Assembly (NCBI GenBank): GCA_013286645.1
Contig: JABDFJ010000004.1
Span: 12 to 64,011 of the forward strand
Length of the DNA: 64,000 nucleotides
Reading direction: 5' to 3'
Source: Chlamydiota bacterium
GTDB taxonomy: Bacteria; Chlamydiota; Chlamydiia; Chlamydiales; Parachlamydiaceae
In this document: piece by piece, positions 39,540-50,774 of the stretch
Numbering within the stretch: the first letter of the stretch is position 1
Layout: every line of letters begins with the position of its first letter
Program-made: the position numbers and the translations under genes
Notes under the pieces: generated by a model
What the model saw: only the letters and a program-made list of their open reading frames with translations
Told to the model about the DNA's origin: nothing
Databases searched by the model: none

Positions 39540-39899
39540 TCAAGCTTTGTGGTCCTCGGAGCTTTCCCCAAAGAGGGAATCGAAACGCTTTTTGGGGTCC
39601 ACATTGCCACCAGCATCATCCACATCGTCGCCAAACAGACGCTTTGCCACGGACCCACTATCTACTTTCTTGGCAGGGGCTTGTCCAAGCAGTTTAAAAT
39701 CTTCACAGAAGTTTGTAGCTGTGCGATCGGCTACATAATCTGTACCTGGCACAGCGCAATCATTGGGTTGACCCGGTTTATAATAGATACAATTTTTGCA
39801 GCAATGCAAAGCTGCATTACACACATCGCAGATAGCCCGAAATGACAACTTTCCCCATGAGGGTTCATCAAGCGTTGCACCACAATTCCAACATTTCAT
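39540..39899 (-). CDS. Small Cys-rich zinc-ribbon protein
   Basis: MKCWNCGATL...CDVCNAALHCCKNCIYY...; ATGA overlap with the upstream MORN-repeat gene. Confidence 0.5.
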   Translation of the reverse strand: MKCWNCGATLDEPSWGKLSFRAICDVCNAALHCCKNCIYYKPGQPNDCAVPGTDYVADRTATNFCEDFKLLGQAPAKKVDSGSVAKRLFGDDVDDAGGNVDPKKRFDSLFGESSEDHKA

Positions 39900-42427
39900 T
39901 CCACATCATCCCATGCACGATTTTCTTGGGGGGTTTTCTTCTTATCAAGCAGCTTATCTTCTGCATAGGATTGAAGGACGAGAGACTTGCCTTCCGCAGT
40001 GTATTTGTTGAATTTGCCATGTCGTTTACCTGCATTATATTCTGCTTCAAAGATAAGCACTCCACTCTTGCTCCACTCCTTGCAAAGACCATTCAGCTTG
40101 CCATGGCAATAGTTGTAGAGACTGATGAGCTGTCCATTGGTAGCAAAGGTTTTTTCTTCCCCTTCCTTTAGATCTTCAACAAAGAGCACTTGCTTTTTGA
40201 TAACTCCATTGGGGTGGTATTCATAGGCCATTCCATTTTGGTTATCGTGGTGAAATTCTGCCGCGATGCTAATGCGTCCCTCATGATTGTATACAGTGAC
40301 AATCCCTTCTTTGAGCCCTTTTTGGTAAGGGGTGCTACCCACTTTGGTGCCAGCTTGGTTATATTCCGAGACTTCCCCTTCAAGCAATCCATTCACGTAA
40401 TTAGCTTCCAATGCTTTGACTTTACCAAAGAAGTCATCTAAAGGATAATAAACCTGATGCAGCCCATCCAGCTCATTGTTTTTATAGTGATAAACGTATT
40501 CACTGTCATCTGCTTTGCGGATATAATAGCGCCCTTCTAGCGAACCCTCATGATAATGAGCCTCCTCGAGGATCTCTCCAGCATTATCCCACAACACCTT
40601 TTTGCCATGGAGAATCCCATCGCGGTATTCCATGAGGATTTTACTTTGGCCATCAGGGAAATATCCCTTTTGTTCCCCGTGCAACTTCCCATCTTGGTAA
40701 TTCATCATACGCGCAATCTGTTGTGGGTGCTCATTTTCTATAGGATAGTAAACCCGTTGCTCACCGATAGGCAAACCACTTGCATAGTGTGAAACTTGCT
40801 GGGGAGCACCATCTTCAAACCAAGAGAGCCATTCTCCATCCAATTTACCAGCCACATATTGTCCTTTACTCGTCATCTTACCATTGGCATGAAATTCTTC
40901 CACAATACCATCAAGATTCCCGTTAATATGCTGAGAAACATTTTTTACAGTGCCATCCTCAAACCACTCTCGATGGCTCCCATGTTTGACGCCATTCACA
41001 TATTCACTTTGTGTTTTGAGTTTGCCGTTGTCATACCATTCTTGGGTTGTCCCTTCCAATAGCCCCTGCAGATAGACAGCTTCGCTGGCTTTTTGTCCAT
41101 TCGCATACCAGGTGTGACTCGGACCCTGTTTTTTACCTTGATCGTAGGTGATAGATACTGCTAGCTTGCCATCAGGATACCATTCCTCATAGACGCCATC
41201 TTTTTTACCACTTTTATATAGTGTTCGCAGTTTAGGTGTATTGTCAGCATAATGTTCTTGTTGCAAACCATCAAAATCGCCCCTCACGTACATGTATTGG
41301 CGCTGCACTTCCCCTTCAGGATAGTACTCCAAAAATTCGCCCTCGTGGACTCCATTGACCAAATAATATTGCTTTTTCAGTTTTCCAGCTGGAGTGTATT
41401 CTTTAACGGGCTCGACGAGCCTGCCGTAATCGTCATAATTGGCAATCCCAATCACTTTACCTTCAGGAGTGCTTTTGGTATGTTTACCTACAGGATTTCC
41501 TGCCACATAACGTCCCTCTCCGATGAGGATACCCTCAATAGAATAGTAGCATTCAGCACCCTGTTTTTTACCTTCGACGTAGCCCACGCGATAGCATTCT
41601 TTGCCATTATCATAGTACTGAACGTATGTACCATACGGTTGCCCCTGCCGGAAATCTTGCACTTCGGCCATGACTCCATTAGGATGATAGCGTGTTAAAG
41701 CATGGCGTTGTCGTTCGCTATTCAGCAACCCTTTTGTATAAAGAGCGACACGTTTAACTTTGCCATCCGGGTACCATTCGATGGATTCTCCAGTTAATAA
41801 ACCATCTTTGTAGTGACGAGAGGCTGCTTTTTTTTCCTCTTCGAAATATTGTGTCACTTCTCCCGTAATGACCCCATGACTATAATGTGAGCGCTCGGCG
41901 ATATCTCCATTAGCATGATATTTCTCCGCAGCTCCATCGTAAATTCCATGTTTTATAGGAACAAAAGACTTCAACAAGCCATTAGCATAAAAAGATTTCA
42001 CACTATGAAAGGGAACGTTTTTGTTATAAAAGGCAATTGTGTCAGCGCTCCCTTCTGGGCTGTAAACCACAGAAGGACCATGAAGCATAAATGCGTAGCT
42101 GCCGGCATCATCTGGAGGAAGGGCTAACAAGTCCGTTTCACTATACAGAGATCCCTCTGCTCTATATACCAGAAGCTTGACAGGCGATTTCTGTTCGGTA
42201 CCTTGCATAGGCTCTAACAATAACACTTTTTTTGGCGACCCATTTTCATACGCTTCCAAAATTTCCGGCACCCAATTGGGTTGGCGCATTTTCAACTTTG
42301 TTGATGGTGTAGGTATATGTGAACTTTCTTGAAGAGCTGCCTTGTTGGCAGTTTCTTGCGCAGCTAAAGAGCTGACGGATATAGAGCTAGCAATAAAAAT
42401 CACAGCAATAAAAAGGAACCGATCCAT
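39896..42427 (-). CDS. Exported MORN-repeat-variant (YwqK-like) repeat protein, about 840 aa
   Basis: More than 25 tandem ~23-aa units of the type G.(K/H).G....(W/Y)Y.(N/D)G.(L/K). Signal peptide MDRFLFIAVIFIASSISVSSLAAQ from ATG 42427. Confidence 0.75.
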   Translation of the reverse strand: MDRFLFIAVIFIASSISVSSLAAQETANKAALQESSHIPTPSTKLKMRQPNWVPEILEAYENGSPKKVLLLEPMQGTEQKSPVKLLVYRAEGSLYSETDLLALPPDDAGSYAFMLHGPSVVYSPEGSADTIAFYNKNVPFHSVKSFYANGLLKSFVPIKHGIYDGAAEKYHANGDIAERSHYSHGVITGEVTQYFEEEKKAASRHYKDGLLTGESIEWYPDGKVKRVALYTKGLLNSERQRHALTRYHPNGVMAEVQDFRQGQPYGTYVQYYDNGKECYRVGYVEGKKQGAECYYSIEGILIGEGRYVAGNPVGKHTKSTPEGKVIGIANYDDYGRLVEPVKEYTPAGKLKKQYYLVNGVHEGEFLEYYPEGEVQRQYMYVRGDFDGLQQEHYADNTPKLRTLYKSGKKDGVYEEWYPDGKLAVSITYDQGKKQGPSHTWYANGQKASEAVYLQGLLEGTTQEWYDNGKLKTQSEYVNGVKHGSHREWFEDGTVKNVSQHINGNLDGIVEEFHANGKMTSKGQYVAGKLDGEWLSWFEDGAPQQVSHYASGLPIGEQRVYYPIENEHPQQIARMMNYQDGKLHGEQKGYFPDGQSKILMEYRDGILHGKKVLWDNAGEILEEAHYHEGSLEGRYYIRKADDSEYVYHYKNNELDGLHQVYYPLDDFFGKVKALEANYVNGLLEGEVSEYNQAGTKVGSTPYQKGLKEGIVTVYNHEGRISIAAEFHHDNQNGMAYEYHPNGVIKKQVLFVEDLKEGEEKTFATNGQLISLYNYCHGKLNGLCKEWSKSGVLIFEAEYNAGKRHGKFNKYTAEGKSLVLQSYAEDKLLDKKKTPQENRAWDDVE

Positions 42428-42458
42428 GAGTAAGCCCGTTTTGTTTAATCTCGATTTT

Positions 42459-43652
42459 TCACAATTTTGGAAGTGCCACCGTCTCAACTTCATCTTGGGG
42501 CAATTGATAAGCTGCAGCACTACCAATTAGAAATAATCCCCCTAGAATAGCTAATGCTTTAGCTGGAGCGTCATCGGTGAAACAAGTAGCTAACACTCCT
42601 CCACCTACCTGTCCAATTCCTTCCGAAATGCACCATACCATTCCCATCAAGAAAGCAATCACCATCCCCTTTTGCTCCGGAGCCAATTGGGTTCCAAGCG
42701 AAATAGCCACAGGCTGCACCACCCCCACAGCAGCTCCCAAAATAAATAATAAGCTCAACAATGCCACATTGCTGTAAGCAGGAACAAATAGCAGGGTATA
42801 AAAGGCACACATCCCGATCAACATCGAAATCAATATCACCAGACGACTAGAAAAACGATCTGCTAAGTGACCTGCTGGAATCATCATTAAAGCCCCACCT
42901 AAGATAAACATCATATGCCCTCCTCCAAAAGAAATCCAGGGAGCATAACCACGTGAGCTAAGTAGATCGGGAAGCAAAAACATCGTCCCCCATAACATAC
43001 TTGCATTACATACTTGCGTAAAATAAAGCAGACGCAAGTCTCTATGGCGAAAAAAATTAATAAAAACTTTTAAATCAAAATGCTTGTTGGCTGTCAACAC
43101 ATTGGCTGGTTTCGGAGAGACTAAACTGATAAAGGCCACTAATACCAGAGCTACCGTAGGGATCGCCAACCAGACCACATGACCATCGAACCATTGATGA
43201 AAGGAAGTGAATAAAATCTGACTAAAAGCCATCCCAAAAGCACCGCCAGACGTAAACAACGAGATTAATAAGCCCTTACTTTTCGGTGATAATTCACTCA
43301 TCATACTAGCTGCGGAAGGATGGAAGGCACCAGAACCAGCACAAGTGCATAGATAGAGCGCGAATAGACACAAATAATTGTCGGTGTAGACAAAACAGGC
43401 ACTTGCCGCCGTAGCCAGCAAGCCGCCCAAAATTAGCGCTTTGCGGTAGCCCCTATCACTTAGGGAACCGAAAAGAACTTGCAAACCTTCTCCTACAAAA
43501 GCACAGATACCGCCAATCAAGCCTGCTATGGCCAGATCGAGATGAGCTAACGTCTTATACACGGGCCAGATGCCAATCATGACATCAACCATAAAATGGC
43601 CCAGACATACGATGATGACAGCCAGTAACAATGTTTTTTTCGAAGAGATCAT
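42459..43652 (-). CDS. MFS transporter
   Basis: 12-TM pattern. GSLSDRGYRK matches the loop 2-3 MFS motif. Confidence 0.8.
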   Translation of the reverse strand: MISSKKTLLLAVIIVCLGHFMVDVMIGIWPVYKTLAHLDLAIAGLIGGICAFVGEGLQVLFGSLSDRGYRKALILGGLLATAASACFVYTDNYLCLFALYLCTCAGSGAFHPSAASMMSELSPKSKGLLISLFTSGGAFGMAFSQILFTSFHQWFDGHVVWLAIPTVALVLVAFISLVSPKPANVLTANKHFDLKVFINFFRHRDLRLLYFTQVCNASMLWGTMFLLPDLLSSRGYAPWISFGGGHMMFILGGALMMIPAGHLADRFSSRLVILISMLIGMCAFYTLLFVPAYSNVALLSLLFILGAAVGVVQPVAISLGTQLAPEQKGMVIAFLMGMVWCISEGIGQVGGGVLATCFTDDAPAKALAILGGLFLIGSAAAYQLPQDEVETVALPKL

Positions 43653-44343: not shown

Positions 44344-45396
44344 ATGAAAAAAATCAATAAGCCTGATCTGAAAAAGTTGGCCTTACTAGGTCTAGCAGGT
44401 GGCACAATCATAGCTTCGCAGCAAGCTTCAGCTGATCAGTTACAAGATCTCAATAACTATGGCACTCTATTAGCATTTGCTGGTTGTGGTGGCGGAAGCT
44501 GCGGTGCCAAGCTCCCAGTTCCACCTCAAACAGCAGGAAGAGAAACTGCTTGGAATGGCAGCTACAACCAAAGCGGACAAAACTATTACTCTGATTACCA
44601 ACAACCTTCACATGGTTGCGGTTCATCTTCACAACAATGGCAATCCTACAACTATCAACAACCATCTCACGGCTGTGGATCTGCTCAACCAGCGCCATCC
44701 TACTACACCAACGCACAACCACAGCAATCTCATGGTTGTGGCGCAGCTCAGCCCGCTCCTTCATACTACACCAACTACCAACCGCAACAATCGCATGGCT
44801 GTGGCGCAGCTCAACCAGCACCACAAGCGCAAGCTTCCTACCAAAATAACAATTCCCAAGGATGGAATCGCTATACTGCAGATGCAGCCCCTACTTCCAC
44901 AGATCAATCTACCATGCCAGCTCCCGCACCTGTAAAACCTGTAAAGCCAGGACAGCCAATGCCAACAGATCCAACTGCGCCACAAACGCCTCCTCCTGCT
45001 TCATACAACAACAGCAATGCACGCAATAATAACACCAGTCTTTCTGCCTATTTCACAGCCGATGCGAGCAAGCCTGCTACTCAACAAGCTAGCGACAAAC
45101 AAGCTCCAATGTCTGAAAGCGAGCTAGTATCCAAGCTTAATAGCGAAGGTAAAGCCACTTTTCAAAGCTTAGATCCTGCTGGCAAAGCTTTGGCTCTCAA
45201 GTTAGCTAACCAAACTTGCAAAGGTCAAAACGACTGCAAAGGCTTAAATTCCTGCAAAACAGCTAACAACAGCTGCGCTGGCAATGGCAGCTGCAAAGGG
45301 ACAAGCAAAGGACCTTTCACAGACAAAAATACAGCTGTAAAAGTAGCAGCTAAAAAAATGAGCGACAAGCGTGTCAACGCAGCTTCTCCAAGCTAA
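44344..45396 (+). CDS. Secreted repeat protein with four SHGCG tandem repeats and a 5-Cys C-terminal module; candidate MNIO substrate (large precursor)
   Basis: ATG 44344 behind AGGAGA. Signal peptide MKKINKPDLKKLALLGLAGGTIIASQQASA. Repeats lie at 44596..44841. The CKGQNDCKGLNSCKTANNSCAGNGSCKG module lies at 45208..45300. It is on the same strand as, and upstream of, the DUF692/DUF2063 genes. Confidence 0.6.
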   Translation: MKKINKPDLKKLALLGLAGGTIIASQQASADQLQDLNNYGTLLAFAGCGGGSCGAKLPVPPQTAGRETAWNGSYNQSGQNYYSDYQQPSHGCGSSSQQWQSYNYQQPSHGCGSAQPAPSYYTNAQPQQSHGCGAAQPAPSYYTNYQPQQSHGCGAAQPAPQAQASYQNNNSQGWNRYTADAAPTSTDQSTMPAPAPVKPVKPGQPMPTDPTAPQTPPPASYNNSNARNNNTSLSAYFTADASKPATQQASDKQAPMSESELVSKLNSEGKATFQSLDPAGKALALKLANQTCKGQNDCKGLNSCKTANNSCAGNGSCKGTSKGPFTDKNTAVKVAAKKMSDKRVNAASPS

Positions 45397-45472
45397 TTGG
45401 AGAAGTTATGCCATCACCTCTCGAACTCTATATTCGAGAGAATGGCATTTTATTTTCTGTCCGTGTAATTTA

Positions 45473-45499
45473 TTAGCCGGCATCAGCCGGCTAATTTTT
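45473..45499 (+). terminator. Intrinsic terminator or attenuator between the two precursor-candidate genes
   Basis: ttagccgg-catcag-ccggctaa followed by ttttt. A second hairpin ctctcgaa...ttcgagag lies at 45418..45440. Confidence 0.5.
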
Positions 45500-45521
45500 A
45501 AGTAAAACAAGGAGAATTTTA

Positions 45522-45845
45522 ATGAAAAAGTCCAAACTAACAAAACTCGCCTTACTCGGCATGGCCGGTGGTGTACTCGCTGCTGCACAGCCAAGCTTAG
45601 AAGGTGTCCAAGATAATAATTCTATCGACATCCAACACCTCATAGCAATGCCAAAATGTGCCGCGCATGGATGTGCCTCTTTAACGGCTGATTCTGACGC
45701 CCCTACTAAAGCAAGTGATGATAAAGCCAATGGGGTCGATTTAGACGATGACACCGATCAACCCAAAACCGATGATAAAACAAAAAATAGCACCCCTAAA
45801 AAATCGGACGCTCCAGCAGCTTCGAAATATATGCTTCAATGCTAA
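45522..45845 (+). CDS. Small secreted protein (107 aa) with KCAAHGC motif and a C-terminal Cys; second candidate MNIO substrate
   Basis: Strong Shine-Dalgarno AAGGAG. The signal peptide MKKSKLTKLALLGMAGGVLAAAQP is homologous to that of the 44344 gene. The tail is acidic and Lys-rich. Confidence 0.55.
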   Translation: MKKSKLTKLALLGMAGGVLAAAQPSLEGVQDNNSIDIQHLIAMPKCAAHGCASLTADSDAPTKASDDKANGVDLDDDTDQPKTDDKTKNSTPKKSDAPAASKYMLQC

Positions 45846-45878: not shown

Positions 45879-46149
45879 AAAAGGACCTAAAGAGGTAATT
45901 GCATAAGTCTCTTTTAATCGATTTTTGGATAATTTCAAGGAGAGAATGATCAAGATGGTACCAGAAGATTTGTCTTGAGCATGTATACCGAACGTGATTC
46001 AAAAGTTGGCATTTCCAGCTGCGCGAAAATCCCCGCGGATCAAATATCCCAAGCGACCCAATATTAGCAATATGGGGTCGCTTGGGATATTCGATCCCCG
46101 GAGTTTTGGCGCGCTCGAAATGCCAACTTTTGAGTCACATTCGATATAC
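45879..46149. repeat. Family-A 5' fragment plus a separate 167-bp palindrome (45983..46149)
   Basis: aaaaggacctaaagaggtaattgcataagtctcttttaatcgatttttggat, followed by arms gtataccgaacgtgattcaaaagttggcatttc... and ...gaaatgccaacttttgagtcacattcgatatac around inner arms atcccaagcgacccaatatt/atatggggtcgcttgggat. Confidence 0.8.
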
Positions 46150-46301: not shown

Positions 46302-47180
46302 ATGCAACGTCGATCATCACTCCCCAATTTAGGCATCGGCATAGGGCTGCGCATCCCGCACTATGAGGACATCTTTACACAACAGCCTAATATCGACTGG
46401 TTTGAAATCATCAGTGAAAATTTTATGGTTGATGGAGGCAAGCCACTCGAAAATCTACATCGCATACTCGAAAGATATCCCGTCGTACAGCATGGAGTAT
46501 CTTTAGCTATAGGCAGTCCAGATCCCCTCGATTTTGAATATCTCAAGCAACTCAAAGCCCTGACCAAAATTACTAAGACTCCATGGGTTTCCGACCATCT
46601 ATGTTGGGGACGGCTTCCTGGGGCACATTATCACGATTTACTTCCCTTGCCCTATACAAAAGAAGTCATCAACTATGTAGCTGAGCGTGCCCGCATTGTA
46701 CAAGATTATCTCGAATTGCCATTTGCCCTCGAAAACTTATCTTCATATGTCGCCTTCCGTAAGGATGAAATGACTGAATGGGAATTTTATAGCGCCGTCG
46801 TAGAAAAAGCTGACATCTTTATGATGCTCGATGTAAACAACATTTATGTCTCTAGTCGCAATCACGGTTTCGACCCCAAGGAATATTATACAAACATCCC
46901 TCTCGACCGCGTGATACAAATCCATCTCGCTGGGCATAGCGATTATGATGCTTATGTTTTAGACACACATGATAACTATGTTAGAGATGAAGTGTGGAAG
47001 ATCTATGCCGACGTTTACCCTCTTACAGGAGGGGTATCGACATTACTCGAATGGGATGATAAATTCATTAGCTTCCAAGACACCTGGGATGAAGCCCTTA
47101 AAGCCAAACAATTCCAACAAGATATCCATCAGCGTCATCCTCATTTAGCTAAAGCTGGTTTGCAGGAGCTATGCAAATGA
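46302..47180 (+). CDS. DUF692/UPF0276 protein = multinuclear non-heme iron oxidase (MNIO; MbnB/BufB/HvfB family)
   Basis: LGIGIGLRIPHYEDIF, IDWFEIISENFM, HGVSLAIGS, WVSDHLCW, PFALENLSSYV, LDVNNIYVSSRNHGFDP and IHLAGH follow the conserved order of DUF692 TIM-barrel proteins. Start set at ATG 46302. Confidence 0.85.
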   Translation: MQRRSSLPNLGIGIGLRIPHYEDIFTQQPNIDWFEIISENFMVDGGKPLENLHRILERYPVVQHGVSLAIGSPDPLDFEYLKQLKALTKITKTPWVSDHLCWGRLPGAHYHDLLPLPYTKEVINYVAERARIVQDYLELPFALENLSSYVAFRKDEMTEWEFYSAVVEKADIFMMLDVNNIYVSSRNHGFDPKEYYTNIPLDRVIQIHLAGHSDYDAYVLDTHDNYVRDEVWKIYADVYPLTGGVSTLLEWDDKFISFQDTWDEALKAKQFQQDIHQRHPHLAKAGLQELCK

Positions 47181-48076
47181 CCTATGATGCTAAAGTACCC
47201 ACACTTTTGAAGCGCGAGCAACAGTGGTTTGGAGGTATCATCGGACGCCCTATCGATGAAGATAGCCGCATGAACCCCATCGCCCCTTCTGGCGAACCTA
47301 TGGAAATAGAAGCAGCGGACCATATTGCACCCAGTCCCACACTGAGACCTGCGCAACGCATCCAAATATACAACCAACAATACTGGTGGCGTCTGCTCAA
47401 TACATTGCATGATTCTTTTCCCATGCTTACGCGTCTATTTGGTTATTATGATTTCAACAAAACCATTGGCATTCCCTATTTAGTCAAAAATCCACCACAC
47501 CATTGGTCGTTGAATTTATTAGGAGATCATTTATTGCAATGGCTAGAAGGCTGCTATCATGCTAAAGACAAAAAACTCGTATGCAATGCTGCCCATTTAG
47601 ATTGGGCCTTCAGCCATAGCTTTGTGGCAGGGCAACGCCCTCCTATCACCGTTGAGCAGCTATCAAATGCTGAAGAGAGAGAACAAATCTTAAGCCAAAC
47701 CATTTATTTACAGCCCCATATCCACTTATTTCAGATGGAACACCATCTGTTTAATTTTAGAAACGAATTTTTAAAAGAAAATCCTGAATATTGGCTGACA
47801 AATGATTTCCCCAAACTTGAACGCGACAAAACTTATCTCTTCATTCTATACCGCAATGCAAAAAAAGATATTTCATGGAAAGAAATCTCTCTTGGAGAAT
47901 ATCATTTGCTAAGCTTCTTCAAGCAGGGAGCGACAATAGAAAACGCATGTGATTGGCTTGAAAAACAAGACGACACCTTGTGCGAAGAAGCCACGAACAA
48001 TTTACAACTATGGTTCCAAGAATGGTCCCAGCGGGGATGGCTTTCTCTTTCCCCATCACTTACACCCGCCTTATGA
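47171..48076 (+). CDS. DUF2063-domain protein (MbnC/BufC/HvfC-like MNIO partner)
   Basis: IQIYNQQYWWRLLNTLHDSFPMLTRLFGYYDFNKTIGIPYLVKNPPHHWSLNLLGDHLLQWL fits the DUF2063 N-terminal helical domain pattern. It overlaps the MNIO gene by 10 nt. Confidence 0.75.
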   Translation: MQMTYDAKVPTLLKREQQWFGGIIGRPIDEDSRMNPIAPSGEPMEIEAADHIAPSPTLRPAQRIQIYNQQYWWRLLNTLHDSFPMLTRLFGYYDFNKTIGIPYLVKNPPHHWSLNLLGDHLLQWLEGCYHAKDKKLVCNAAHLDWAFSHSFVAGQRPPITVEQLSNAEEREQILSQTIYLQPHIHLFQMEHHLFNFRNEFLKENPEYWLTNDFPKLERDKTYLFILYRNAKKDISWKEISLGEYHLLSFFKQGATIENACDWLEKQDDTLCEEATNNLQLWFQEWSQRGWLSLSPSLTPAL

Positions 48077-49317
48077 CACCTCGTGAAGCCGCATATTGCG
48101 CCCTATTAGCCTCATTACGCCAGGAAAACTTCATCACCCATTCGCTTGAAGCATGGCAACAAAAACATCATCCCTCCTCACTAGACTTTGCCTTCGCCCT
48201 AGAAATAGCCTCTGGCTCTGCTCGTATGGCTCTTGCTTTAGACCATATTGCCGCACAACTTTCTACCCATCAAAAACTGTCACTCAAATTGAAAGAGCGC
48301 GCTCTATTGCGTACCGCCATTTATCAACATTACTACATGGATAAAGTGCCCCTTTACGCCATTGTCAATGAAACCATCAACATCGGTAAAAAATATTGTC
48401 ATCGCACATTTGTCAGTTACCTCAATGCCATGCTGCGACAATTAAATGTCATATCACCGACCCTCCCAACTGGTGACTCTACACATAATTTAAGTGTCCG
48501 CTATTCCTATCCTGAATATTTTGTCCAGCAGCTAGTGAAAGACTATGGACAAGCAACCACCATCGACATCCTCAATGCTGGCAATCAACGTCCTGTCACC
48601 ATGGTGCGGTTACGTCCCGGTATGCATTTAGAAGGAGATGCCTTTAGACAACTTACCCCTCTTAAACACGCCGAGCTTCCCGTCGCGATTTGCTATTTGC
48701 AAAATGTTATGATTGACATAGCAGCTTCTCCAGGGTGTTACATCCAAAATGCCACACCAGCCACATTAATTGCCGATTTAGCCCAGCTGAGTCCGACGCC
48801 CCAACGCATTTTAGATTTATGTGCCTCGCCTGGAGGCAAATTACTTGCAGCCCACGATGCCTTCCCTCAAGCTACTTTGTACGCCAATGATATCTCTCCC
48901 GATAAACTGCAACGCCTCACACAAAATCTAATCAAATATAAAACATCGGCCCAATTGTCGTGTGGACAAGGAGAAGATTACCCCACCAACGAACAATTTG
49001 ATATCGTCATTTTAGATGTACCTTGCAGCAATAGTGGTGTGTTAAACAAACGTTCAGAGGCACGCTGGCGCTTAACACCGGAAGCCTTGCAACAATTAAA
49101 GTTAACACAGCAAAAACTGTTAGCACACGCCTCCAAATTGATCAACAAAGAGGGTGTGCTTTGGTATCTAACGTGCAGTATTCTTAAAGAGGAAAACGAA
49201 CAGCTGCTAGCAGCGTTTTGTCAGCAGCATGCCATGAGAATAACCTATTCCCGCACCGTCTTGCCCAATGTGGAAGGATGGGATGGAGGCTATGCTTGCT
49301 TATTGCAAAAAAGCTAA
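48073..49317 (+). CDS. rsmB: 16S rRNA m5C methyltransferase (RsmB/Sun family)
   Basis: NusB-like N-terminal domain, SAM site DLCASPGGKLL, and catalytic ILDVPCSNSGVL and TCSI. ATG 48073 overlaps the DUF2063 stop (ATGA). Confidence 0.8.
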   Translation: MTPREAAYCALLASLRQENFITHSLEAWQQKHHPSSLDFAFALEIASGSARMALALDHIAAQLSTHQKLSLKLKERALLRTAIYQHYYMDKVPLYAIVNETINIGKKYCHRTFVSYLNAMLRQLNVISPTLPTGDSTHNLSVRYSYPEYFVQQLVKDYGQATTIDILNAGNQRPVTMVRLRPGMHLEGDAFRQLTPLKHAELPVAICYLQNVMIDIAASPGCYIQNATPATLIADLAQLSPTPQRILDLCASPGGKLLAAHDAFPQATLYANDISPDKLQRLTQNLIKYKTSAQLSCGQGEDYPTNEQFDIVILDVPCSNSGVLNKRSEARWRLTPEALQQLKLTQQKLLAHASKLINKEGVLWYLTCSILKEENEQLLAAFCQQHAMRITYSRTVLPNVEGWDGGYACLLQKS

Positions 49318-50021: not shown

Positions 50022-50774
50022 ATGCTCTATAAACGTCATCATGAGTTACATTGGCTTGAATTCGAACTGCTGGCCGATTGTCCAATCATTCACGGATCGT
50101 TTCTACGCCATGGAGGAACAAGCACAGGCCCCTTAGGCAGTCTCAATCTAGGCAAAAGTAGAGGCGATCTACCTGAAAATGTTAGTGCAAACATAAAAAA
50201 AGTTGCCGATACCCTCTCTTTACCCGATATACTCTCGGCTAGAATCTGTCACGGTGACGCCATCACGGCGGTCAATAACGCTCACCTAATCCCTCCCATG
50301 AGCGATGGATTGTCCACCAGCACACCCCATTTAGGCCTGATGGTTACCCAAGCCGATTGCCAAGCAGCCATCTTCTATGACCCTATCCGCCATGCTTTAG
50401 CGAATGTCCATTGTGGCTGGAGGGGCAATGTACAAAATATCTATGCCGCTACAGTGAATCACATGCAGCAAGTCTATGGCTCCATGCCTGCCGATCTCAT
50501 CGTGTGTATTTCGCCAAGTTTAGGACCCGATAGCTCCCAGTTCATTAACTATAAAGAGGAATTGCCTGCCGATTTTTGTGCTTTCCAAATCAAAGCCGAA
50601 TATTTTGACCTGTGGGCAATTAGTGAATGGCAACTTACAACAGCTGGCATACTCCCACACCACATTCAAATTGCCCGCATAGACACTTTTGCCCATCCAG
50701 CAGACTACTTTTCTCACCGCCGTAACCCTCAGTGCGGCCGTCAGGCTACGATCTGTGCTTTGCGAACAAGATGA
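50022..50774 (+). CDS. pgeF: YfiH/PgeF-family (laccase-domain) protein
   Basis: HGD..., GLMVTQADCQAAIFYDP and HCGWRG motifs in the canonical order. Confidence 0.8.
   Translation: MLYKRHHELHWLEFELLADCPIIHGSFLRHGGTSTGPLGSLNLGKSRGDLPENVSANIKKVADTLSLPDILSARICHGDAITAVNNAHLIPPMSDGLSTSTPHLGLMVTQADCQAAIFYDPIRHALANVHCGWRGNVQNIYAATVNHMQQVYGSMPADLIVCISPSLGPDSSQFINYKEELPADFCAFQIKAEYFDLWAISEWQLTTAGILPHHIQIARIDTFAHPADYFSHRRNPQCGRQATICALRTR

Follow-up and report, generated by a model that had tools for sequence, protein, structure and literature searches.

A short gene for an acidic two-cysteine peptide as a candidate second bufferin/captophorin-type substrate gene in Parachlamydiaceae

The window analysed here, a 64,000-nucleotide stretch of contig JABDFJ010000004.1 (assembly GCA_013286645.1) from a member of the Parachlamydiaceae, carries a 107-residue open reading frame, ORF2 (45522–45845, + strand), between a gene for a long precursor (gene 1) and the genes for an MNIO enzyme and its DUF2063 partner. 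Comparison with relatives shows that ORF2 is a real and conserved gene, which encodes a small acidic peptide with one cysteine pair and is predicted to be exported. We consider it probable that ORF2 is the second substrate gene, after gene 1, of a bufferin/captophorin-type operon of Parachlamydiaceae, that its product is a copper peptide oxidised by the MNIO, and that the hairpins following gene 1 act as a terminator or attenuator. The ORF2 gene and its family are an unrecognised variant of a known system rather than a new kind of system. The hosts of the family are amoeba-associated chlamydiae, and the neighbouring MNIO is an iron enzyme of the kind that makes copper peptides.

Bufferin/captophorin systems form a very large class of copper-handling modified peptides, and the chlamydial substrates all escape the published precursor models. 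The ORF2 family offers a natural minimal substrate with one Cys pair in a disordered peptide, which would be useful for defining both what BufB-type MNIOs need and the smallest copper site. It also suggests that one enzyme pair in environmental chlamydiae may serve two very different substrates.

A conserved short gene between a long precursor gene and a BufB-type MNIO gene

Gene 1 (44344–45396, + strand, from the list of open reading frames) encodes a long precursor of 350 residues, which has a signal peptide at its start, a BufA2-like Cys-Lys domain at its C-terminus, and also the motif LLAFAGCGGGSCG and four SHGCG repeats. Residues 286–321 scored 35.7 bits against the BufA2 model NF050166, which is below the cutoff of 60, and this C-terminus is the sole BufA2-like domain of its own genome. 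After the intergenic hairpins, a Shine-Dalgarno sequence read as AAGGAG (45509–45514, + strand) stands 7 nt before the ATG of ORF2, and both the ribosome-binding site and the 107-residue frame are present as the initial annotation had described them. ORF2 lies on the same strand as, and adjoins, the genes for the MNIO and its DUF2063 (PME-type 1) partner. The MNIO (DUF692; 46302–47180, + strand) matched PF05114 with an E-value of 3.5e-104 and scored 322 bits against the BufB model NF050167, whose cutoff is 310; it is the one MNIO of its own genome (2.39 Mb, 79% complete). It has EWDD at the site of ERDF in the Haemophilus-type structure 3bww and is without the Phe that marks Lys-Cys MNIOs. The DUF2063/HvfC-like partner (47171–48076, + strand) matched PF09836 with 45.8 bits and NF050145 only weakly. 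No DoxX gene was found in the operon, and no Lactamase_B_2 gene was seen among the operon neighbours. Further out, a large MORN-repeat-type protein is encoded upstream on the opposite strand (39896–42526, − strand; syntenic in the metagenome relatives L089–L091), rsmB is coupled to the DUF2063 gene (48073–49317, + strand), and a Cu-oxidase_4 (PF02578) gene follows about 2 kb downstream (50022–50774, + strand), the latter two also being syntenic in metagenome relatives.

The ORF2-type gene is located 5–260 nt upstream of the MNIO gene in most loci, whereas the gap in the window is 457 nt. It is wider here because a palindromic element of about 168 nt (45983–46149, no strand assigned) has been inserted. 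The element consists of nested inverted repeats of 50 and 39 nt (I1 and I2). Other contigs carry at least seven full-length copies (77–97% identity) and many fragments, and the element resembles a dispersed repeat of the MITE type. The Rfam search gave nothing over gathering scores, and the sub-threshold miRNA-like matches on the palindromic repeat were regarded as noise. Because this repeat separates ORF2 from the MNIO gene, their co-transcription is not assured.

The Sec-type signal peptide region of ORF2 (45522–45605), which is conserved across the family, was read from the sequence by eye as a K-rich n-region, a 14-residue hydrophobic h-region LALLGMAGGVLAAA and AxA-type sites, with candidate cleavage after AAA22 or LEG28. 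The conserved core SIDIQHLIAMPKCAAHGCASLTADSD (45621–45698) holds Cys46 (45657–45659) and Cys51 (45672–45674) in C-x4-C spacing, both followed by Ala (K-C-A and G-C-A). The remaining acidic tail (45699–45842), K/T-rich and predicted to be disordered, ends in Cys107 (45840–45842), so that this copy has three Cys; the D/K/T-rich composition of the tail and its end in ...YMLQC agree with the earlier description. AlphaFold2 predicted no fold for ORF2 (pLDDT 47). Pfam and NCBIfam searches with ORF2 returned only low-complexity noise, and a first word-index protein search retrieved the query itself only.

Within the 2.39-Mb genome, gene 1 was the only other match to ORF2 (E 4.5e-4, residues 3–53), and a profile of the N-terminal module, comprising the signal peptide and the first Cys motif, found only gene 1 and ORF2 at E ≤ 1. 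The paralogy of the two signal peptides, which had been proposed from the sequence alone, is borne out by this search and runs past the signal peptide into the first Cys motif; ORF2 shares nothing else with gene 1. The initial annotation had also taken KCAAHGCASL of ORF2 as an echo of the HGC core in gene 1. The link between the two genes was correct, but the true counterpart is the first motif of gene 1, LLAFAGCGGGSCG, just after the signal peptide, and not the SHGCG repeats.

Whole-genome searches identified orthologues of 91 residues in G019 (E 1e-11) and 98 residues in G015 (E 3e-8), both at the same position behind a long precursor, and the same-position orthologues comprise those of G351 and G359 (genus g136), G015 (g16) and G019 (g20). 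In G351 and G359, whose MNIOs are 84–88% identical to that of the window, a long precursor that ends in a BufA2-like tail comes first, followed by hairpins, an ORF2-type gene of 85 or 123 residues, the MNIO gene and the DUF2063 gene. This order recurs in G015, where 15 nt lie between the short gene and the MNIO gene downstream of it, and in the metagenome contigs L089/L090, L091/L092 and L093. The first pair of contigs shares with the window the large upstream opposite-strand protein, rsmB and the Cu-oxidase_4 gene; the second shares the large upstream opposite-strand protein and rsmB. In every context with enough flank, covering four Parachlamydiaceae genera and three metagenome lineages, the ORF2-type gene is thus found between a long BufA2-tailed precursor and a BufB-type MNIO with DUF2063, except that the MNIO is unlinked in G019. 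There, the two precursor genes stay beside an MFS transporter gene (L028, G019:C85), and the MNIO-DUF2063-rsmB operon is located on another contig behind a DegT-type aminotransferase gene (L010/L047, G019:C19). Absence or disruption of the frame in syntenic relatives, which the initial annotation had named as a refutation, did not occur, since the frame is kept at the same position.

Could ORF2 nevertheless be a chance frame, or what decay has left of a longer second precursor of the BufA2 type? At position 2, several other genera of the family have a longer paralogue with the same N-terminal module and a BufA2-like domain, and the repeat element inserted downstream of ORF2 would also be compatible with decay. 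However, a tblastn search with the 186-residue second precursor of G023 detected no BufA2-domain remnant downstream of the ORF2 stop, and therefore ORF2 is not a recent truncation. Four genera and dozens of metagenome clusters keep the short form at full length. Moreover, pairwise divergence at codon positions 1, 2 and 3 was 0.48, 0.36 and 0.67 (nine genes, 71 gap-free codons), which is the pattern of a coding sequence. We therefore find a chance or remnant origin scarcely credible. As a separate observation, the ORF2-type genes of L089 and L090 (4001–4297), contigs from different samples, are identical, with 0 differences in 297 nt, while 13 differences separate their MNIO genes, 12 of which fall on third codon positions; even in its nucleotides, the short gene is thus unusually well conserved.

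The two-cysteine family and its link to the MNIO

A family profile built from ORF2 and two orthologues was scored against 1.84 billion protein cluster representatives and matched 61 of them at E ≤ 1e-3 and 24 at E ≤ 1e-10. Nearly all matches have 85–130 residues and align end to end. The members are named only as hypothetical proteins in their sources, and one comes from a Parachlamydiaceae MAG. When 400 genomes of the order were sampled, matches over the full length (E < 1e-20) were confined to the window's own family. In the alignment A5, which contains 35 sequences of the ORF2 family, the signal peptide follows the pattern MKKxELxKLALLG..G with a subsequent E-A/G position, the core reads S(I/L)D..hh-AKP-x-C-(K)xxx-GCGG-(L)TA-x-RD, and a D/E-rich stretch then leads into a polar K/T/P-rich end. 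The second Cys, C51, is invariant and the first, C46, is kept in at least 90% of the members; 32 of the 35 have exactly two Cys in the exported part. Most members have C-x5-C spacing, the consensus at the first Cys is C-K, and many place a His between the two Cys (CKAHGGC, CAAHGC). The median net charge of the family is −8.

None of the 35 members matched the BufA2 (Buf_6/12Cys) model NF050166 at E ≤ 1, any Pfam model including PF10048 (DUF2282, the BufA1 family with four conserved Cys) at E ≤ 1, or any NCBIfam model, and EGKCG repeats are absent from both ORF2 and the family alignment. ORF2 consequently fits none of the described precursor models. The family is uncatalogued, has no Pfam or NCBIfam model, and is restricted so far to Parachlamydiaceae; a profile from A5 could annotate dozens of genes that are now labelled hypothetical. 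The core unit is repeated in two cases. Protein P0030 (118 residues) contains the core unit three times, as C(K/R)AH.GC(A/G)GLTADR, and gene 2 of G396 (251 residues; L058, G396:C3, minus strand) has three WDHSCSHGCGSIADR units before a BufA2-like domain. Tandem repetition of this kind is typical of core sequences, whereas recognition sequences are usually not repeated so.

The N-terminal module also follows the enzyme. Profile A2, which represents this module, was tested in 150 sampled genomes of the order and matched in 50, of which 49 also have an MNIO; only one of the 84 genomes without an MNIO carried the module. Because relatives are not independent, these counts overstate the case, and we take the co-occurrence as supportive and not as a formal test. 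The matches are usually located on the same strand as the MNIO gene, 0.1–3 kb upstream of it. In the order-wide loci L031–L046, one to five tandem genes stand upstream of the MNIO/DUF2063 pair; they have in common the signal peptide MKKxDLKKLALLG..G and differ greatly in their Cys-motif bodies, some being lipoprotein-like (e.g. in G154). Synteny, family conservation, codon-position divergence and the co-occurrence of module and MNIO together lend good comparative support to the second precursor that had been suggested from the sequence of the window.

The most likely role of ORF2 is, in our reading, that of a minimal two-Cys bufferin/captophorin substrate. BufB/BufC turn Cys into 5-thiooxazoles, of which BufA1 carries two, and the signal peptide of BufA1 is dispensable for thiooxazole formation (10.1101/2024.03.18.585515). 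The enzyme pair FonBC requires two Cys units, with a preference for a small residue following Cys, and Cys-Lys-type MNIOs have Asp, not Phe, after the catalytic Asp (PMC13097082). By analogy to these precedents, and because of EWDD in the enzyme and the C-K consensus in the family, the MNIO/DUF2063 complex would be expected to oxidise both Cys46 and Cys51 in the cytoplasm, giving 5-thiooxazoles and a total mass change of −8 Da. The modified peptide would then be exported by Sec and lose its signal peptide, and in the periplasm the product of about 80 residues may provide a minimal copper site made of two heterocycles, next to the gene 1 product with its many sites. The first Cys of ORF2 itself is followed by Ala and not by Lys, which makes the fit to a Cys-Lys-type active site uncertain.

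Two other roles for an exported ORF2 product have to be weighed against that of a substrate. It is unlikely that the peptide is exported without being an MNIO substrate, although its unmodified CxxH.C pair could bind metal: in such a case the unmodified Cys-x2-His-x-Cys motif and the acidic tail would bind metal, or the product would serve as a periplasmic redox or escort peptide, for instance by buffering cations or accompanying the gene 1 product. The His found between the two Cys in many members, the strongly acidic tail reflected in the family's median charge, and the presence of only two Cys in a sequence unmatched by the precursor models would all suit this explanation. It accounts poorly for the tight association of the module with MNIO presence, for the short distance to the MNIO gene in most loci, and for the core, which in relatives recurs in the manner of a RiPP core and is joined to true BufA2 domains. 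Much less probable still is an accessory or regulatory peptide that is not the end product, acting either as a substrate mimic that titrates MNIO/DUF2063 or as a signal for a periplasmic sensor. That ORF2 has only the signal peptide and first motif in common with gene 1, and that the structured element before it is conserved, with a sequence-invariant apex suggestive of regulated expression, could be understood in this way. However, no sensor or regulator gene is conserved beside ORF2 in the window or in the contexts of L089–L093, the 79%-complete genome yielded no ArsR/SmtB or CsoR gene, and we know of no precedent for such a peptide in bufferin systems.

The initial annotation had further speculated that the C-terminal Cys is a site for TglH-type chemistry, given the terminal ...YMLQC. 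Beta-carbon excision or related chemistry at Cys107 has next to no probability in our estimation, because the terminal Cys occurs in none of the 34 aligned family members and none of the 8 orthologous genes, being unique to this genome, and because the enzyme scores above the BufB cutoff and is partnered by DUF2063 instead of a TglI-type protein. Taken together, all features observed in the initial annotation were found again and its reading of ORF2 as a second precursor has gained support, while the TglH link has not.

A bipartite hairpin element between the two precursor genes

The two hairpins reported after the 350-residue gene, the second with a GC stem and a T-run, were recovered in the sequence, in the terminator scan and by folding. 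Hairpin 1 (45408–45457, + strand, from the fold) is built of an outer stem, ATGCCAT (45408–45414) paired with ATGGCAT (45442–45448), and an inner stem, CTCTCGAA (45418–45425) paired with TTCGAGAG (45433–45440), closing the loop CTCTATA; it continues into the U-rich tail TTTATTTT. Hairpin 2 (45472–45500, + strand, from the terminator scan) resembles an intrinsic terminator, as its 10-bp stem ATTAGCCGGC/GCCGGCTAAT with six G-C pairs and a 4-nt loop (45472–45495) is followed by TTTTT. The 141-nt intergenic stretch folds with −45 kcal/mol (z = −6.2), and none of 200 shuffled sequences folded as well. A simple terminator scan found one site, compared with 2.9 ± 1.8 in shuffles, a count not above chance. 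The significance of the hairpins is therefore based on fold energy and on conservation across genera and not on the scan count.

In almost every relative, the upstream precursor gene has a strong hairpin behind it, so that the layout of a hairpin after the precursor, as pointed out in the initial annotation, is conserved. The apex of hairpin 1, (Y)GAACTYYAKATTC(R), which is GAA-CTCTATA-TTC here, was found after gene-1 orthologues in 11 loci (the window, G351, G359 with one mismatch, G023, G010, G367, L050, L088, L089/L090, L091 and L093). It is invariant across genera even though the gene 1 proteins are only ~38% identical, and the apex pattern is unique in the window's own genome. Outside the apex, the lower stems differ between loci and covary, with compensatory changes in 7 of 12 pairs; the invariant GAA/TTC apex stem is closed by a C-G pair in three sequences and by a U-A pair in another three. 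A T-run comes after hairpin 1 in most of its copies. The stem of hairpin 2, (A/G)GCCGGC-loop-GCCGGC(T) with a T-run, also occurs in G359, G023, G010, G367 and L089/L090. Seven further apex matches in 48 other genomes of the family were rejected as chance, as they lie inside coding regions without a hairpin and a reversed-pattern control gave eight.

The simplest reading is that the two hairpins are tandem intrinsic terminators or an attenuator after gene 1, such that gene 1 mRNA would be made in excess and ORF2 and the enzyme genes would be reached by read-through. The invariant apex of hairpin 1 hints at a specific binding partner, and the conserved 3' hairpin is a candidate cis-regulatory RNA, few of which are known in the phylum. 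There is a minor but appreciable chance that hairpin 1 is not mainly a terminator, and instead a DNA operator, a promoter element given the −10-like TATATT in the apex, or a factor-bound site for stabilising or processing mRNA. Besides the constancy of GAACTYYAKATTC across genera with such diverged gene 1 proteins, the apex holds a TAnAnT-like hexamer. On the other side, the lower stems covary without keeping their sequence, which points to selection on RNA pairing, a T-run follows most copies, and the promoter scan detected no sigma-70-like site here on the + strand. Neither an ArsR/SmtB (PF01022) nor a CsoR (PF02583) gene was found in the 79%-complete genome, and, together with the covarying stems, this left the DNA-operator version without support.

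A bolder proposal combines both parts of the locus: the two-Cys acidic peptides would be distinct, Parachlamydiaceae-specific minimal thiooxazole metallophores, and the bipartite element, made of the apex GAACUYYAKAUUC and the GCCGGC terminator, would be a regulated attenuator, bound by protein or RNA or responsive to metal, that sets how much of the long multi-site precursor is made inside the host cell relative to the short precursor and the enzymes. We regard this combination as decidedly unlikely in full.

Terminator or attenuator hairpins at precursor genes are familiar from lantibiotic and other RiPP operons. The element described here is like them in that a strong hairpin with a T-run stands between an upstream precursor gene and downstream genes, but it is bipartite, the apex of its first hairpin is sequence-invariant across genera, and it separates two precursor genes rather than a precursor gene from an enzyme gene.

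Comparison with known precursor families

Among characterised systems, bufferin 2 or 'Cys-Lys' captophorins, represented by BufA2-BufB2-BufC2 of Caulobacter vibrioides, offer a first comparison (10.1101/2024.03.18.585515, PMC12452194, PMC13097082). As in that system, ORF2 has a Sec signal peptide and stands upstream of a BufB-type MNIO over the NF050167 cutoff and of DUF2063, the enzyme has Asp after the catalytic Asp as in Cys-Lys-type MNIOs, the family consensus at the first Cys is C-K, and tandem precursor genes have been reported for such clusters. Unlike bufferin 2, however, the ORF2 family is unmatched by the BufA2 model, has two conserved Cys instead of six in C-K-type spacing, is restricted so far to Parachlamydiaceae, and has no DoxX gene in the operon of ORF2. 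Bufferins also adopt a small-protein fold, whereas ORF2 is predicted by AlphaFold2 to have none and has a long acidic tail.

Buf_EGKCG, oxazolin and fontiphorin, the 'Lys-Cys' captophorins, are similar to ORF2 in being disordered and in having Cys flanked by small residues, and two Cys units are likewise the minimal FonBC substrate in fontiphorin. They differ in that ORF2 is without EGKCG repeats and the enzyme in the window is without the Phe of the Lys-Cys type (EWDD vs ERDF). Nor does ORF2 correspond to the TglA/TglH-type (pearlin) substrates, since the ORF2 family has no conserved C-terminal Cys and is accompanied by a BufB-type enzyme with DUF2063.

Antoine et al. (2025) described the precursor families Buf1, Buf2, Buf_EGKCG and a small CxxxxC family, and reported tandem precursor genes together with hundreds of unclassified small signal-peptide ORFs before MNIO genes (PMC12452194). 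Their genome table lists Protochlamydia and Waddlia with MNIO, DUF2063 and a DoxX gene, and with no recognised precursor (PMC12452194). A literature search found nothing linking captophorins or DUF692 with Parachlamydiaceae, and a search of the supplements of PMC12452194 for ORF2-family sequence fragments gave no matching text. The CxxxxC family, which comprises 76 proteins, shares with ORF2 the small Sec-signal peptide, the conserved Cys pair, the C-x4-C spacing of ORF2 itself and the location beside MNIO and DUF2063 genes (PMC12452194). Most members of the ORF2 family are, in contrast, C-x5-C, and Lactamase_B_2 and DoxX, which are often present in the CxxxxC clusters, were both missing among the neighbours of ORF2 (PMC12452194). 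The C-x5-C majority and these missing partners argue, in a comparison by description only, that the ORF2 family is distinct from the CxxxxC family. With Buf1, Buf2, Buf_EGKCG and CxxxxC as the published families, the ORF2 family therefore counts as a new family of sequences within a known class, its separation from CxxxxC being by description.
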